Shown: in pieces, positions 9,020-63,928 of the stretch
Layout: every line of letters begins with the position of its first letter
Numbering within the stretch: position 1 is the stretch's first letter
Assembly: GCA_041563955.1 (NCBI GenBank)
Contig: JBFGQV010000002.1
Span: 147 to 64,146 of the forward strand
Length of the DNA: 64,000 bases
Source of the DNA: Alphaproteobacteria bacterium
GTDB taxonomy: Bacteria; Pseudomonadota; Alphaproteobacteria; UBA8366; JADFVY01
Reading direction: 5' to 3'
The notes under the pieces: model-generated
Databases searched by the model: none
Seen by the model: only the letters and a program-made list of their open reading frames with translations
Told to the model about the DNA's origin: nothing
Program-made: the position numbers and the translations under genes

Positions 9020-9106
9020 TGGTGCCCCCGGGGAGACTCGAACTCCCACTCCGTTGCCGGAAACAGATTTTGAGTCTGCCGCGTCTACCAGTTCCGCCAC
9101 AGGGGC
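9020..9106 (-). tRNA. tRNA-Leu (anticodon CAA)
   Basis: The reverse complement reads GCCCCTGTGGCGGAACTGGTAGACGCGGCAGACTCAAAATCTGTTTCCGGCAACGGAGTGGGAGTTCGAGTCTCCCCGGGGGCACCA. It has a 7-bp acceptor stem, anticodon loop CTCAAAA, a long variable arm, a GTTCGAGTC T-loop and an encoded CCA. Confidence 0.9.
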
Positions 9107-57736: not shown

Positions 57737-57813
57737 GCGCCCGTAGCTCAACTGGACAGAGTACCTGACTACGGATCAGGGGGTTGGGGGTTCGAATCCT
57801 CCCGGGCGCGCCA
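57737..57813 (+). tRNA. tRNA-Arg (anticodon ACG)
   Basis: GCGCCCGTAGCTCAACTGGACAGAGTACCTGACTACGGATCAGGGGGTTGGGGGTTCGAATCCTCCCGGGCGCGCCA. It has a 7-bp acceptor stem, anticodon loop CTACGGA, a GTTCGAATC T-loop and an encoded CCA. Confidence 0.9.
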
Positions 57814-59226: not shown

Positions 59227-59467
59227 GAACGCCCCCTTGCAGCCGGCATCAGCGGTGGCCCGCCGACTCTCGCGCCGTTCGCTTAAGGGCGGGTGAACGA
59301 TAGCTAAAATGCGCAGTGATTGCCGTATCGCCGGCTGGCGCCGCGGCGCCGGCGTTTAAACGGAACGTTAACCGCAGGCTGCTATCATCGCGGCGTCGAC
59401 ATCGGTCGGCGGACCCGTGCGATGCCGTGCCGGGCCTCAGGAAACCGGACAACGGGAGTTTCGAGTC

Positions 59468-59719
59468 GTGACAGGACAGGACTACAATGCGCGGATGGCG
59501 GCTCTGTGGATCTTGCACGCCACCGTATGCGTCAAGCTCCTCAAGGCGCACGGCAGGACGCTGCACGCCGAGAATTTCGAGGCGGCGTTGCGGGAGTTCG
59601 CGGACATTGTCGCCGATGAGGTCGGCCACGACACCCTGACCGAGGCGATGGACTGGGCCGCCGGCCAGGTGTCCGTCTACGGCAACGATCTCGACCAGGA
59701 GCCGGTTTCGATCCACTGA
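59468..59719 (+). CDS. Hypothetical small protein
   Basis: A GTG at 59468 is preceded by GGGAG 9 nt upstream. 83 aa. A hairpin plus T-tract follows. I recognise no family. Confidence 0.35.
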   Translation: MTGQDYNARMAALWILHATVCVKLLKAHGRTLHAENFEAALREFADIVADEVGHDTLTEAMDWAAGQVSVYGNDLDQEPVSIH

Positions 59720-59813: not shown

Positions 59814-60602
59814 TTAGATTCGCTCACCCCCCTGGAGCGGGGTGAACCGAACCGACAGGACGCGCCGGCGGCGCAACTCACCGCTGGCGGTCTTTTCGAT
59901 GAGCGTGAGGAACTGGGGCCCGTCCCGGGGGCCGAGCGGGAGCACCATGCGCCCGCCCGGCTTCAGCTGCCGCAGCAGCACCGGCGGCACGTGGTCGACG
60001 GCCTCCTTGATGATGATGGCGTCGAACGGCGCCTGGCGCGGCGCCCCGTAATAGCCGTCCGAAGCGATCACCTCGACGTTGTCGTAGCCGAGGCGCTTCA
60101 GCCTGGCCGATGCTTCCAGCGCCAGGGGCGCCAGCACTTCCACGCTGACCACGCGCCGCGCCAGTTTGGACAGCACCGCAGCGTGGTAACCGGCGCCCGT
60201 GCCGGTCTCGAAGACGACGTCGTCCGGCGCGATCCGCGCGAGGTGGGTCATGAGGGCGACGAGGTAGGGCTGGGCGATGCTCTGCTCGTCGCTTACGGGG
60301 AGCGGCGTGTCGGCGTAGGCGAAATCCGTCAACGCCTCTGGAACGAACAGATGACGGGGCACTTCGCCCATGACTTCCATGACCCGGGGATCGATCTCCG
60401 ACACGCCGGTCTCGTCCGCCGCGATGGCGGTGTGGGCGCCGATCGTGCGGAGCATATCGATCCGCTCCGACACCCGATCTCCGTCGTCCCCCGCCCGTTC
60501 GGCGCTGGTGGCGGCCGCCACGGCACACAGAATGACCGCCGCCGCCGCCAGGCGCCGGGCCATGCGAAACAGCCATCGCAGGACATGCCGAACCGTCTTC
60601 AT
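59814..60602 (-). CDS. pcm: Protein-L-isoaspartate O-methyltransferase with N-terminal signal/anchor sequence
   Basis: VPRHLFVP, QSIAQPYLVALM and VFETGTGAGYHAAVL (SAM motif I) are Pcm hallmarks. The N-terminus MKTVRHVLRWLFRMARRLAAAAVILCAVAAATSA looks like a Sec signal peptide. Confidence 0.8.
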   Translation of the reverse strand: MKTVRHVLRWLFRMARRLAAAAVILCAVAAATSAERAGDDGDRVSERIDMLRTIGAHTAIAADETGVSEIDPRVMEVMGEVPRHLFVPEALTDFAYADTPLPVSDEQSIAQPYLVALMTHLARIAPDDVVFETGTGAGYHAAVLSKLARRVVSVEVLAPLALEASARLKRLGYDNVEVIASDGYYGAPRQAPFDAIIIKEAVDHVPPVLLRQLKPGGRMVLPLGPRDGPQFLTLIEKTASGELRRRRVLSVRFTPLQGGERI

Positions 60603-60642
60603 CCGGCCAACCTATCACATTTTCGAGCGCAGTTCGCGTTCC

Positions 60643-60658
60643 TGGCACGAAATCTGCT
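60643..60658 (+). promoter_or_regulatory. Sigma-54 (RpoN) -24/-12 promoter, copy 1: TGGCACGAAATCTGCT
   Basis: It matches the consensus TGGCACG-N4-TTGCW at all positions except one (CTGC for TTGC). The GC of the -12 element lies 12 nt before the first base of the conserved 34-mer. Confidence 0.6.
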
Positions 60659-60668
60659 TATAATATCC

Positions 60669-60726
60669 GTGCAACCCTTCCTTATGCCAACTCGGCCCCG
60701 ATGCAGATGTCATCGGGGTTTTTTTT
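60669..60726 (+). ncRNA. Candidate sigma-54-dependent small RNA, copy 1 (~58 nt)
   Basis: The conserved 34-mer GTGCAACCCTTCCTTATGCCAACTCGGCCCCGAT (60669-60702) runs into the hairpin CCCCGATG/CATCGGGG followed by T8 (60719-60726). There is no RBS or credible ORF. Confidence 0.6.
60696..60726 (+). terminator. Rho-independent terminator of sRNA copy 1
   Basis: An 8-bp GC-rich stem (60696-60703 / 60711-60718), a 7-nt loop and eight consecutive T. Confidence 0.7.
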
Positions 60727-60807
60727 GGCGGCCTTCCCGGGCCCTTCCGGCGATCCCGCGCGGCAAGCGACACATTCGATCGTTGATGTCGTTCGATGGG
60801 CGGAAGA

Positions 60808-60823
60808 TGGCACGGTCTTTGCT
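60808..60823 (+). promoter_or_regulatory. Sigma-54 (RpoN) -24/-12 promoter, copy 2: TGGCACGGTCTTTGCT
   Basis: A full match to TGGCACG-N4-TTGCW. It has the same 10-nt non-conserved spacer to the conserved 34-mer as copy 1. Confidence 0.65.
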
Positions 60824-60833
60824 TCTCGTATGT

Positions 60834-60905
60834 GTGCAACCCTTCCTTATGCCAACTCGGCCCCGATACCGTTTTTTCGAGAACGCGTATCGGGGCCTTT
60901 TTATT
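60834..60905 (+). ncRNA. Candidate sigma-54-dependent small RNA, copy 2 (~70 nt)
   Basis: The identical 34-mer at 60834-60867 runs into the hairpin GGCCCCGATAC/GTATCGGGGCC (60859-60869 / 60887-60897), followed by TTTTTATT. Confidence 0.6.
60859..60905 (+). terminator. Rho-independent terminator of sRNA copy 2
   Basis: An 11-bp GC-rich stem, possibly extended by an inner CGTT/AACG pairing, followed by TTTTTATT. Confidence 0.65.
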
Positions 60906-61061
60906 CTCTAGAAATCAAAACGTTATGGCGGGTGTTTCGGCCGCTGACTACAACCGGGTCGCAGTCGCATGTTGCAAGATGCAACGAAATGGCCTTGCGG
61001 AATGCAATCCCGGGTGGCCGCTAAGTCCACGGCAGGATTGTGGTTTTGCCCTGCCCGGCGG

Positions 61062-61541
61062 TCAGGGTGCCTGGCGGCGGTCCGGCGGCCTGATACGGCC
61101 ATCCCACAGGCCGCGACGGGCCCTGCGCGCGTCCTCCTGATCGACGCGGTACCGATCGATACCCTCCATGGCTTCCGCCCAGCCGCTACGGACGAGGGCT
61201 TCGTTGACGTCACGCTCACCAACGTAACAGGTCGCATAGGGCACGCTGTCCGGCGTGCGCTGGTCCTCCAGATCGCAGGACACGCGATAACCATCGGCAA
61301 GTCGAATCAGCTCCGCCCACGCGACGACACCGCACCGAAATCGCCGCTCGCCGGCGTCGCAGGTCGCGTCGGGCCGCGGTGCCTGCGAGCCGTAGAGGCG
61401 GATGGTCGCGTCACCGACCGCGATTTCATTGCCGGACCGCACCTCGGCGACACCCTCGATTTCCTGCGCGCCGGCGCCCGTGGCGACGGCCATTGCGACA
61501 ATCACGGTGGGGATCAGCGCGGATCGTGCAGGGACTAACAT
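61062..61541 (-). CDS. Secreted thermonuclease (SNase-like) family protein
   Basis: Start at MLVPARSALIPTVIVAMAVATGAGA (signal peptide). IRLYGSQAP...CG...A...L...NEALVRSGWA follows the staphylococcal nuclease-like pattern. Confidence 0.7.
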   Translation of the reverse strand: MLVPARSALIPTVIVAMAVATGAGAQEIEGVAEVRSGNEIAVGDATIRLYGSQAPRPDATCDAGERRFRCGVVAWAELIRLADGYRVSCDLEDQRTPDSVPYATCYVGERDVNEALVRSGWAEAMEGIDRYRVDQEDARRARRGLWDGRIRPPDRRQAP

Positions 61542-61699
61542 CGGCGGCTCCGGGAGGTTGGCGTTATGCGATAATAGCCGGCTTACCGCAAAGCGAAATC
61601 GGCAATATCGCGCGGTACGGGATTGGTGTGACATATCGCCGATGAATGGCTACAGTAGGGCATCATCCAGTCCGTTGGCAAAGACTAGCACTCTCAAGC

Positions 61700-63928
61700 A
61701 TGATCCGTTTCCTGCACTGTGCCGTTCTGGCCGCTGCACTGGCAGTGGTATGGCTGCCCGCCGGCGCGGGCGCCGCGGAAGCACCGCCGCCATCCGTCAC
61801 GGTGGCTGAGCTCGAAGATCTCGTGGCGACGCTCGAGGATGAGGGCGAGCGCCAGGAACTGGTGCAGCGGCTGCGAACGCTCATCGAGTTGAAGAGGGCC
61901 GAGGGCCAAGTGCAGGAACCGGCGGACCAGACGCTCGGCACCCTGCTGGTCGACCAGCTGTCGGCGTACAGTGAGGAACTCGGCCGCCAGCTATCCGCGC
62001 TCGCCGCGGCCGTGCTGAAGATTCCGGCAAGCCTCGCAGGTCTGCGCGACCAGCTGCTCGACCCCGAAGTTCGAGAGGTGTGGCTTATCGGACTGCTGTC
62101 GTTCGTCGCCGTGGTCGGCGTCGGCCTGATCGTCTCACGCCTCGTCCAGTTCATCCTGAAACGGCCGTTACAGGCGGTCTCCCATCGCACAGATGAGAGC
62201 GTGCTGGTCATGGTTCCGCTGCTGCTCGCGCGCCTCGTGCTGATTCTGGTGCCGCCGCTTGCCTTCGCCGGCGCAGGCTGGGCCGCCGTCAGCGTCTTCG
62301 AGGCGGAGAGTATCGCGCGCCCGGTGGCGTTGTCGATCATCTACGCGGTCGCGCTCGCCGGCGCCGTGAACGCCGTGGCGCGCACGCTGCTGGCACCGGC
62401 AGCGGCGACCGCACGGCCGATATCCGTGACCAATGAAACCGCGGAATACCTCTACATCTGGGTGCGGCGGATAACCGACCTTGGCATCTACGGGTACTTC
62501 ACGGTCGAGATTGCCGGACTGCTGGGACTGCCGGTTCCCGCACAAAGCCTGCTGATCAAGCTGATCGGCCTGGTGCTGACGTCGTTCCTGGTCATGATGA
62601 TCCTGCAGAACCGGCGGCCGGTGGCCGACTATATCGGTGCCCATAATGGCGGCCGTCTGGCGACCCTGCGGCAGCGGTTTGCGGATCTCTGGCACGTGAT
62701 GGCGATCCTGTACATCGTGCTCGTCTACCTGGTCTGGGTCGTCGGCATACCCGGCGGATTCACCTATATGATTCGATCCACCGCGCTGAGCCTGCTGGCG
62801 CTGACGGCGGTCGTGATCCTGTTGAATTTAGCGATGCGCTTCGTCGACCGCACCTTCGCCCTGTCCGACGAGGTCAAGACCCGACTGCCGGGCCTGGAGG
62901 CGCGCGTCAACCGCTACCTTCCCGTGGTCAAGACGGTTCTGCGGGGCGTTGCCTGGCTGGTTGCGATCCTGGCCGTCCTGCAGGCTTGGGGGGTGGACAT
63001 CCTCGTCTGGCTGAGTGAGCCGGCCGGTCGGGCACTACTGGGGCGCATCGCCAGCATCGGCGCCATCATACTGCTGGCGCTGGTCGGCTGGGAGGCGATC
63101 AGCGCCGCCGTCGAGCGTTACTTGACCTCCGAGGAGACCACGCCGAGCCAGCGGGCCCGCACATTGCTGCCGCTGCTGCGCAAGGTAACGCTCGTCATCC
63201 TCACCGTGGTGGTCGGGCTCACGGTGCTGTCGGAGCTGGGCATCAACATCGCACCGCTGCTGGCCGGCGCCGGGGTCGTCGGCCTGGCCGTGGGGTTCGG
63301 CGCGCAGACGCTGGTCCGCGACGTGATCACGGGCCTGTTCATCCTGATCGAGGACACGGTGTCGGTCGGCGACTTCGTCACGCTGGGCGGCCACGGGGGC
63401 ACCGTCGAGGCCCTGTCGATCCGCTCGATCCGGCTGCGCGACCCGTCGGGCACGGTCCACACGATTCCGTTCAGCGACGTCACCACCGTGATCAACTACA
63501 CTCGCGAATTCGCCTATGCGGTGCTCGACATCGGCGTCGCCTACAAGGAGGACGTGGATGCGGTCTCACGGGTGATCGAGGCGGCGGGCGCAGAGTTGCG
63601 CCAGGATCCGGTCCTGGCCGAATCCGTTCTTGACGACGTGCAGCTTCTGGGGCTCGACAGGTTCGATGACTCCGCCGTCGTCATCAAGGCGCGGATCAAG
63701 ACGGCGCCGGGCATGCAGTGGGCCGTGCGGCGCGCCTTCAACCGTCTTCTCAAGCAGCGATTCGATGCGGAGGGGATCGAGATCCCGTTCCCGCAACGGA
63801 CGGTCTGGTTCGCACAGGAGCCGCAGCCGGCAGAGCCGACGGGGCGCGTGGCGGGCGAGGCGGCCGGCAGCCGCGACGCACCGACTGCGGACACCGCGAA
63901 CGACGCCGCGCAGGACAGGGACGGCTGA
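61700..63928 (+). CDS. MscS-family mechanosensitive channel with extended N-terminal multi-TM region
   Basis: Start at MIRFLHCAVLAAALAVVWLPAGAGA (signal peptide). The pore/beta-domain region is GVVGLAVGFGAQTLVRDVITGLFILIEDTVSVGDFV...G.VE.LSIRSIRLRD. Confidence 0.85.
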   Translation: MIRFLHCAVLAAALAVVWLPAGAGAAEAPPPSVTVAELEDLVATLEDEGERQELVQRLRTLIELKRAEGQVQEPADQTLGTLLVDQLSAYSEELGRQLSALAAAVLKIPASLAGLRDQLLDPEVREVWLIGLLSFVAVVGVGLIVSRLVQFILKRPLQAVSHRTDESVLVMVPLLLARLVLILVPPLAFAGAGWAAVSVFEAESIARPVALSIIYAVALAGAVNAVARTLLAPAAATARPISVTNETAEYLYIWVRRITDLGIYGYFTVEIAGLLGLPVPAQSLLIKLIGLVLTSFLVMMILQNRRPVADYIGAHNGGRLATLRQRFADLWHVMAILYIVLVYLVWVVGIPGGFTYMIRSTALSLLALTAVVILLNLAMRFVDRTFALSDEVKTRLPGLEARVNRYLPVVKTVLRGVAWLVAILAVLQAWGVDILVWLSEPAGRALLGRIASIGAIILLALVGWEAISAAVERYLTSEETTPSQRARTLLPLLRKVTLVILTVVVGLTVLSELGINIAPLLAGAGVVGLAVGFGAQTLVRDVITGLFILIEDTVSVGDFVTLGGHGGTVEALSIRSIRLRDPSGTVHTIPFSDVTTVINYTREFAYAVLDIGVAYKEDVDAVSRVIEAAGAELRQDPVLAESVLDDVQLLGLDRFDDSAVVIKARIKTAPGMQWAVRRAFNRLLKQRFDAEGIEIPFPQRTVWFAQEPQPAEPTGRVAGEAAGSRDAPTADTANDAAQDRDG

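Follow-up and report, generated by a model that had tools for sequence, protein, structure and literature searches.

Promoters of the sigma-54 (RpoN) type are silent without an ATP-hydrolysing bacterial enhancer-binding protein (bEBP), and the list of small RNAs (sRNAs) that are controlled in this way is short. The GlmY/GlmZ RNAs of Enterobacteria, Pxr of Myxococcus and NcS25 of Burkholderia are transcribed from -24/-12 promoters with a dedicated bEBP, CrcZ/CrcY and NrsZ of Pseudomonas are also sigma-54-dependent, and the sibling RNAs Qrr1-5 of Vibrio, which keep approximately 30 invariant nucleotides, are activated by phosphorylated LuxO (LuxO~P) together with sigma-54. To our knowledge, very few sigma-54-driven riboregulators are known in the Alphaproteobacteria. 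A 64,000-nucleotide stretch of DNA from an alphaproteobacterium (assembly GCA_041563955.1, contig JBFGQV010000002.1, positions 147 to 64,146), hereafter called the window, contains two predicted sRNA genes in tandem, sRNA 1 and sRNA 2, in the gap between pcm and an SNase-like open reading frame (ORF). The pair looks like an undescribed family of sigma-54-dependent sibling sRNAs, with the twist that a conserved LuxO-like candidate enhancer lies downstream of the pair.

An exact search of the window located the 34-nt sequence GTGCAACCCTTCCTTATGCCAACTCGGCCCCGAT at two sites on the + strand, 60669-60702 and 60834-60867, and no third copy was present in the 64 kb when up to three mismatches were allowed (0 of 100 shuffles matched). 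A preliminary description of this DNA had reported the identical pair in the gap between pcm and a nuclease gene; both sites and the flanking genes were found as described, and its sequence observations were confirmed wherever they were testable. According to a repeat search, the full repeat is a unit of 60 nt (60643-60702 and 60808-60867) with 85% identity and a spacing of 165. The predicted sRNA 1, the short-terminator paralogue (type 1), is approximately 58 nt long and corresponds to 60669-60726 on the + strand, as judged from conservation and from a hairpin followed by T8. The predicted sRNA 2, the long-terminator paralogue (type 2), would be about 69-72 nt long (60834-60905, + strand), as judged from conservation and folding. 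Both predicted transcripts are of the sRNA type, i.e. short stand-alone units ending in a GC-rich hairpin and a U-tail, and no co-oriented (+ strand) gene lies downstream of sRNA 1 or sRNA 2, the next gene being convergent.

The same locus was found in approximately 25 related lineages, all of them uncultured Alphaproteobacteria or "Rhodospirillales" represented by metagenome-assembled genomes (MAGs) and metagenome contigs (single loci are given here by their L numbers). There is one such locus per genome, and with rare exceptions it holds an sRNA pair. Besides CP070634.1, the MAGs of this group include JBFHDX01, JBFIFO01, CAMYKU01, CAMYNJ01, JAOUMF01, CBFDDT01 and JAHELM01. The genomes of 185,579 species, one genome per species, were scanned with CAACCCTTCCTTATGCCAAC, which is a part of the transcribed core only. 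Twelve stretches matched, 11 of which were real, a few of the contigs evidently being mis-binned. Two exact matches to the core, 125-190 bp apart, were present in 10 of the 11 real loci, and in the remaining one (L018) the second copy is present with a differing linker. The scan of the JGI metagenomes with the core yielded 16 stretches, 15 of them real and nearly all again with two copies 125-190 bp apart; in L034 one copy is broken by NN. Related loci are present in the JGI samples Ga0224496/0224497/0224501/0224512 and 3300041074-3300041083, and the sequence of the window itself is contained exactly in the runs SRR29257391, SRR25158358 and SRR29257534. Two Aequorivita-like Bacteroidota contigs, L019 (2204-2223) and L040 (715-735), contain the 20-mer core once each without promoter or terminator and were rejected as chance matches, which is a caution for pattern scans of this kind. 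The metagenome lineage L030 has one copy of the long-hairpin type, on the - strand at approximately 1772-1843 and directly beside pcm, and the palindromes described below are more degenerate in it. The sRNA duplication is thus not universal. In L024 (CAYFYY010000019.1), L021 and L026 (both CAXMQC01), the alphaproteobacterial locus is found in MAGs labelled Flavobacteriales and Akkermansiaceae, suggesting mis-binning, and L021 and L026, which come from one bin, break off or overlap where the sRNA pair lies, with slight differences, suggesting a strain mixture.

A covariance model built from the long-hairpin copies found only the two copies in the window, sRNA 2 with 93.4 bits and sRNA 1 with 59.7 bits, plus the antisense of the hairpin, and CP070634.1, a chromosome of 3.86 Mb and the only complete one, carries a single sRNA pair. 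The unit is therefore a single-locus gene pair and not the dispersed repeat that the preliminary description had considered as an outcome speaking against it. The exact pcm protein of the window occurs elsewhere only on short metagenome contigs, and the loci of pcm homologues with 62-86% identity share the gene order kinase, MscS, SNase-like gene, gap and pcm. The pair is unchanged in L016 and L023, both of which are without pcm. Synteny is lost around the pcm relatives L028, L046 and L047 (57-62% identity), and in L028 the sRNA is absent by the covariance model, while L027, whose pcm has 62% identity, still has the sRNA pair; the boundary of the family would thus be roughly that of this clade.

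Both copies in the window are preceded, in identical register, by TGGCAC-N5-(T)TGC. Promoter P1, TGGCACGAAATCTGCT at 60643-60658 (+ strand), has GG at -25/-24 and GC at -13/-12 relative to 60669, and it has one mismatch to the sigma-54 consensus TGGCACG-N4-TTGCW (PMC4999443), to which P2, TGGCACGGTCTTTGCT at 60808-60823 (+ strand), is a perfect match. The earlier claim of near-consensus RpoN-type elements at equal distance from the two copies is thus borne out. The pattern alone is not rare, with 3 matches at one mismatch or less in 64 kb against 1.4 expected, so the significance of the promoters comes from their register and their conservation. Since the scans used the transcribed core only, conservation of the promoters is an independent test. 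With the first base of the identity block as reference for the numbering, TGGCA[CT]-N5/6-TGC precedes all 49 distinct copies, with GG at -25/-24 and GC at -13/-12, and TGGCA[CT] and TGC stand in fixed register in all type-1 copies. In the upstream regions of type 2 (n=29 distinct), information is found only at -26 to -18 (TGGCACGGT) and at -15 to -12 (TTGC) and is near zero elsewhere. Within the 351 kb of DNA examined, such promoter-like sites occur only before these RNAs, plus one at L034:2327.

In the aligned gaps both units are kept, with the promoter elements TGGC.C and TGC and the block GCAACCCTTCCTTATGCCAACT invariant; not conserved are the 10-nt spacer, the inter-unit DNA and the hairpin loops. 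The comparison with related genomes suggested in the preliminary description thus turned out in its favour, since approximately 25 lineages keep the -24 GG, the -12 GC and the transcribed block while spacer and flanks vary. The 10 nt between promoter and identity block, which it had described as unconserved between the two copies, indeed differ (TATAATATCC in sRNA 1 and TCTCGTATGT in sRNA 2) and drift across lineages too. Conservation of the RNA across lineages begins at +3, and the first two bases vary (GU, CU, CC, AU, UU, AC, GG), which fits predicted transcription starts that lie no more than 2 nt from 60669 and 60834. Presumably, both P1 and P2 are sigma-54-dependent. They differ consistently, P1 having NTGC at -12 and P2 the consensus TTGC, and in most lineages a TATAAT-like hexamer (60659-60664) directly follows the -12 element of P1, with none after P2.

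A further element, (T/G)ATCAC(A/T)TTTTCG(A/C)GCGC at 60613-60630 (+ strand), lies approximately 30 nt upstream of the -24 element of P1 and occurs at P1 only. By eye, in the upstream regions, it stands at a fixed distance in approximately 21 of 25 distinct lineages, and because it is kept in the two loci without pcm it is assigned to the sRNA 1 promoter region. As a site for integration host factor (IHF) it is, by eye, only a partial match to WATCAANNNNTTR, and no such claim is made. On the - strand, a sigma-70-like TTGGCA-17-GATATT (60690 to 60662) lies across the sRNA 1 5' end and is directed into pcm, suggesting the possibility of overlapping sigma-70/sigma-54 promoters or of a divergent pcm promoter overlapping sRNA 1. 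In L012 (3893-3960, locus on the - strand), the P1 segment GTTGGCGCGAAAGTTGCT is tandemly duplicated, with TGGCGC in place of TGGCAC.

The transcribed parts are conserved most strongly at the 5' end. The near-invariant 22-nt block of sRNA 1, GCAACCCUUCCUUAUGCCAACU, lies at 60671-60692 (+ strand) with the C/U-rich motif CCCUUCCUU at 60675-60683. The corresponding block of sRNA 2 (60836-60857, + strand; CCCUUCCUU at 60840-60848) is invariant, being identical in 26 of 26 aligned type-2 copies. Across both types, GCAACCCTTCCTTATGC is kept in 49 of 49 distinct copies and the full 22-nt block in nearly all, its first 17 nt being identical in every one; variants occur in two type-1 lineages only (GCU in L027, CAAACU in L018/L035). 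The block is near-identical although pcm identity goes down to 62%. In the predicted minimum free energy fold, CCCUUCCUU is unpaired in an 11-nt loop, and the seed-like block is mostly unpaired. Such strict invariance over 22 nt points to a function that is important and probably involves several targets, in a lineage of which only metagenomes are available.

The two orthologous types, type 1 with a short hairpin and type 2 with a long one, persist across the lineages. The intrinsic terminator of sRNA 1, identified by a terminator scan, is predicted at 60694-60726 (+ strand), with the hairpin at 60694-60720 and the T-run (T8) at 60719-60726. That of sRNA 2 is predicted at 60859-60905 (+ strand), with the hairpin at 60859-60897 followed by UUUUUAUU; the hairpin plus TTTTTATT folds with -29.3 kcal/mol (z = -5.7). 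The GC-rich hairpin plus U-tract with which each copy was said to end was thus recovered, by the scan for the first copy and by the fold for the second. Covariation was assessed in 26 type-2 and 23 type-1 sequences, with slid helices and shuffles as controls. In type 2, 6 of the 11 pairs of the outer stem were changed on both sides (33 cells), and in type 1, 4 of 11 (14 cells). Standard pairs were formed in 94.0% of the type-2 cells and 94.7% of the type-1 cells, compared with 32-49% and 29-43%, respectively, in the slid controls, and the covariation score was reached by 0 of 500 shuffles in either type. The compensatory support that had been drawn from the two copies in the window is weak as a two-copy argument, but the claim itself is upheld by the cross-species covariation of both helices.

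Rfam 15 was searched with the whole window at gathering thresholds and with a 601-nt region at E<=10. No family matched the sRNA locus at its gathering threshold, and none scored above approximately 20 bits in the permissive search. The best sub-threshold match was anti-hemB (RF02837), whose 20.4 bits fall short of the required 49.5, while RF02278, the Betaproteobacteria toxic sRNA, reached 13.7 of the required 50 bits. Qrr (RF00378), a family with four stem-loops and a conserved 32-nt region, did not match at the gathering threshold or at E<=10. Full-text literature searches with the sequence and for sigma-54 sRNAs in Alphaproteobacteria/Rhodospirillales found no description of this RNA or an equivalent. 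With no family at threshold and no published description, the novelty proposed in the preliminary description still stands.

Two palindromes, which lie outside the coordinates of the preliminary description, are found in the stretch that separates the sRNA 2 terminator from the SNase-like ORF's stop codon. Palindrome A, TTGCAAGATGCAA, a candidate bEBP enhancer site at 60972-60984, starts at +138 from the sRNA 2 start, and palindrome B, TTGCGGAATGCAA at 60995-61007, starts at +161, 23 bp from A centre to centre. Among the 27 listed loci, site A starts at +137 to +141 from the sRNA 2 start in 21, and site B follows A by 22-23 bp, approximately two helical turns, in 18. The palindrome consensus is TYGCRRRWTGCRA, with GC and TGC invariant. 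The LuxO enhancer consensus of Vibrio, TTGCAWWWTGCAA, is matched at 12 of 13 positions by A and at 11 of 13 by B; Vibrio qrr genes are preceded by one or two copies of this consensus (PMC11443567; PMC10162802). Natural enhancers downstream of a sigma-54 start have been documented for FlrC at flagellar promoters of Vibrio cholerae (PMC6504787). An RNA hairpin was rejected as an explanation of the palindromes, since changes in one arm are not compensated in the other (U2/G12 and C2/A12 are both seen), and a DNA site is thus indicated rather than an RNA helix. The distance of the palindromes to P2 is fixed, whereas that to P1 varies with the inter-gene spacing, so they are a candidate enhancer of P2 and perhaps of P1 as well. 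No LuxO-type sites were found upstream of P1 or between the sRNA genes. The conserved REC-PAS-HisKA-HATPase kinase encoded beyond MscS was considered as the activator and set aside as a syntenic neighbour.

The anatomy of the two units, their conservation pattern, the covariation of the terminators, the single locus and the absence from Rfam are shown by the sequence analysis, and the comparative evidence supports two real RNA genes. We consider it probable that they encode sigma-54/bEBP-activated, trans-acting sRNAs which pair with ribosome-binding sites, and from the organization described above we infer transcription, dependence on RpoN and a bEBP, an enhancer role of the palindromes, a base-pairing mode of action with Hfq and the existence of targets. 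Each gene would be transcribed from its own sigma-54 promoter, beginning at the start predicted above, and would end at its own intrinsic terminator. Because sigma-54 promoters need a bEBP, the pair is probably switched on by a signal-controlled activator of the NtrC family. As enhancer, the two TTGCA-N3-TGCAA-type palindromes (60972-61007) are the best candidate, and from there the activator would reach one or both promoters via DNA looping. The shared 5' segment GCAACCCUUCCUUAUGCCAACU, whose C/U-rich part resembles the 3' end of 16S rRNA with one extra U, would most likely pair with the purine-rich ribosome-binding sites (AAGGAAGG) of several mRNAs and so block their translation, probably with Hfq. 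As promoter details and terminators differ and the 5' segment is common, the siblings are probably regulated or stabilised differently, with shared targets.

Several observations weigh against base-pairing sRNAs under sigma-54 control. The carriers are all uncultured, a protein-binding site would explain the invariance of the 22 nt just as well, and the three-pair 5' stem (GCA/UGC) shows no variation in either type and hence has no covariation support. The palindromes are downstream of both promoters, at an unconserved distance from P1, and may serve another purpose. No bEBP gene, as judged from GAFTGA, ESELFG and Walker-A motifs in six frames, was found in the window or in any of the loci, and a 20-kb view of CP070634.1 showed none within 10 kb of the pair. 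The window and the neighbouring conserved genes yielded no ribosome-binding site complementary to the sRNAs, a weak negative as the DNA open to searching amounted to less than 2% of a genome. A search for 11-mer complements in the window returned only the antisense of the sRNA genes themselves, an RNAduplex comparison with 884 candidate start regions from the window gave nothing that stood out, and neither did a scan for 8-mer complements and start codons in the 351 kb of all loci. Duplexes with conserved neighbour genes were unremarkable and showed no conserved pairing. The GC-rich background makes such duplex energies uninformative.

A more specific form of this proposal, that the locus is an alphaproteobacterial counterpart of LuxO-Qrr, in which a phosphorelay-controlled NtrC-family activator with LuxO-like specificity uses a shared downstream enhancer and the two sRNAs reprogramme the translation of a regulon, is tentative and, in our judgement, rather unlikely. 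If true, it would represent a decision circuit of bEBP and sibling sRNAs, either independently evolved or anciently shared, in an uncultured lineage, and a natural downstream enhancer serving two promoters. The sample names of the carrier metagenomes suggest sand filters and wastewater.

Alternatively, sigma-54-driven RNAs from this locus could bind or titrate a protein or act as a sponge or decoy for another RNA, which is unlikely. The near-identity of the 5' block in both paralogues at 62% pcm identity, an invariant stretch exceeding the need of a typical 7-10-nt seed and the empty target searches are all consistent with such a role. Against it, the + strand contains neither GGA nor other known protein-binding repeats, one short motif per RNA would make a poor sponge, and the C/U-rich single-stranded 5' end with a U-tailed terminator is the classic layout of a base-pairing sRNA; long invariance is, moreover, also a property of the Qrr sRNAs.

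Action in cis, either as antisense RNA or transcription interference on pcm or the SNase-like gene or as promoter/operator DNA for them, is quite unlikely. The sigma-70-like sequence facing pcm across sRNA 1 and the TATAAT-like hexamer found after P1, not P2, in most lineages would agree with it, as would the constant adjacency of the SNase-like and MscS genes, but the pair is unchanged in the loci that are without pcm, the second copy adjoins no gene start, 156 nt separate the end of sRNA 2 from the SNase stop, and duplexes with the neighbouring 5' regions were unremarkable and unconserved. Functional transcripts from the - strand, on which a small stem-loop presents AAGGAAGGG and the hairpin loop AUAAGGAAGGGU would be a GGA-in-loop like that of CsrA/RsmA-binding RNAs, are very unlikely, as no - strand promoter is conserved, 49 of 49 copies have their sigma-54 elements and T-runs in + strand orientation, and the homopolymer run would come before, not after, the strong hairpin. 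A dispersed element resembling repetitive extragenic palindromes or miniature inverted-repeat transposable elements (REP/MITE-like), or a recombination remnant without gene function, would account for the tandem repetition and the hairpin, but with only two copies in the window, a single pair on a complete chromosome, constant synteny and two paralogue types that are each orthologously conserved, it is hardly conceivable. Small peptides, for which the ATG within the conserved block (AUGCCAACU…) might speak, are extremely unlikely, since no Shine-Dalgarno sequence precedes this ATG, linker indels of 1-3 nt (CAACUCGG, CAACUCUGG, CAAACUAAGG) and variable hairpin lengths shift the frame between lineages, and the first nucleotides vary (GUG, CUG, CCG, AUG, UUG, ACG).

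The gap is flanked by pcm (59814-60602, - strand; PF01135, E = 9e-52) and by the SNase-like ORF (61062-61634, - strand), a weak match to PF00565 with 21.4 bits, after which a large gene for an MscS-type channel follows (61646-63928). By eye, the PCMT protein has a hydrophobic, signal-like N-terminal segment, which would be unusual for a normally cytoplasmic repair enzyme, and the SNase-like ORF also has an apparent N-terminal signal-like segment (by eye only). A small ORF of 83-100 amino acids (59417-59719, + strand) without a Pfam match lies between the gene for an M50 peptidase and pcm and is kept in all related loci, including L016, which has no pcm. The neighbourhood of PCMT, SNase-like protein, MscS and M50 peptidase looks envelope-related. 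The sole Rfam/ARAGORN matches in the window were tRNA-Leu(CAA) at 9020-9106 (- strand) and tRNA-Arg(ACG) at 57737-57813 (+ strand).

If the pair is expressed as predicted, a new and cleanly delimited family would join the sigma-54-driven riboregulators. The locus is compact, combining within approximately 400 bp a promoter and a terminator for each sRNA gene, a shared candidate enhancer and an upstream element specific to one promoter, and it would be an attractive model for the differential control of sibling sRNAs and for a downstream enhancer serving tandem sigma-54 promoters. No concept is overturned; the value of the pair is that of a well-supported candidate for Rfam that is experimentally tractable.

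Among the described sRNAs, anti-hemB and the Betaproteobacteria toxic sRNA share with this pair a small size, a C/U-rich motif of probable anti-Shine-Dalgarno type, exposed in a loop or at the 5' end, and a GC-rich terminator, a likeness of the likely working principle only. The motif here is CCCUUCCUU and not the CCUCC(UCCC) of the anti-Shine-Dalgarno loop sRNAs. The alphaproteobacterial alpha-r14/NfeR1 and CcsR RNAs, which have CCUCCUCCC loops, resemble the pair in the same way. We do not know of any of these four, anti-hemB, RF02278, alpha-r14/NfeR1 and CcsR, as being sigma-54 driven. GlmY/GlmZ, Pxr and NcS25 resemble the pair as sRNA genes with a -24/-12 promoter, and some of these sigma-54 sRNAs are duplicated, Pxr having tandem paralogues as here, but their families gave no Rfam match in the window, and lineage, size and seed differ. 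The FlrC promoters, with true enhancers downstream, are a precedent for the geometry (PMC6504787), although FlrC controls protein-coding flagellar genes and its binding motif is unrelated.

The closest parallel is Qrr, from which the pair also departs in several respects. The RNAs described here are shorter (58-70 nt with one real hairpin) and have no similarity to Qrr in sequence or structure. Their genes are tandem-adjacent, whereas the qrr genes are scattered, and the palindromes are downstream, whereas the LuxO sites, TTGCAW3TGCAA, are located at about -90 to -150 upstream. The host is alphaproteobacterial, with no luxO-like gene adjacent to the pair. In common with Qrr1-5, however, the siblings would each have a sigma-54 promoter and an intrinsic terminator of their own, they diverge outside a long, invariant single-stranded segment common to them, and tandem 13-bp palindromes of the TTGCA-N3-TGCAA type are found near the genes.

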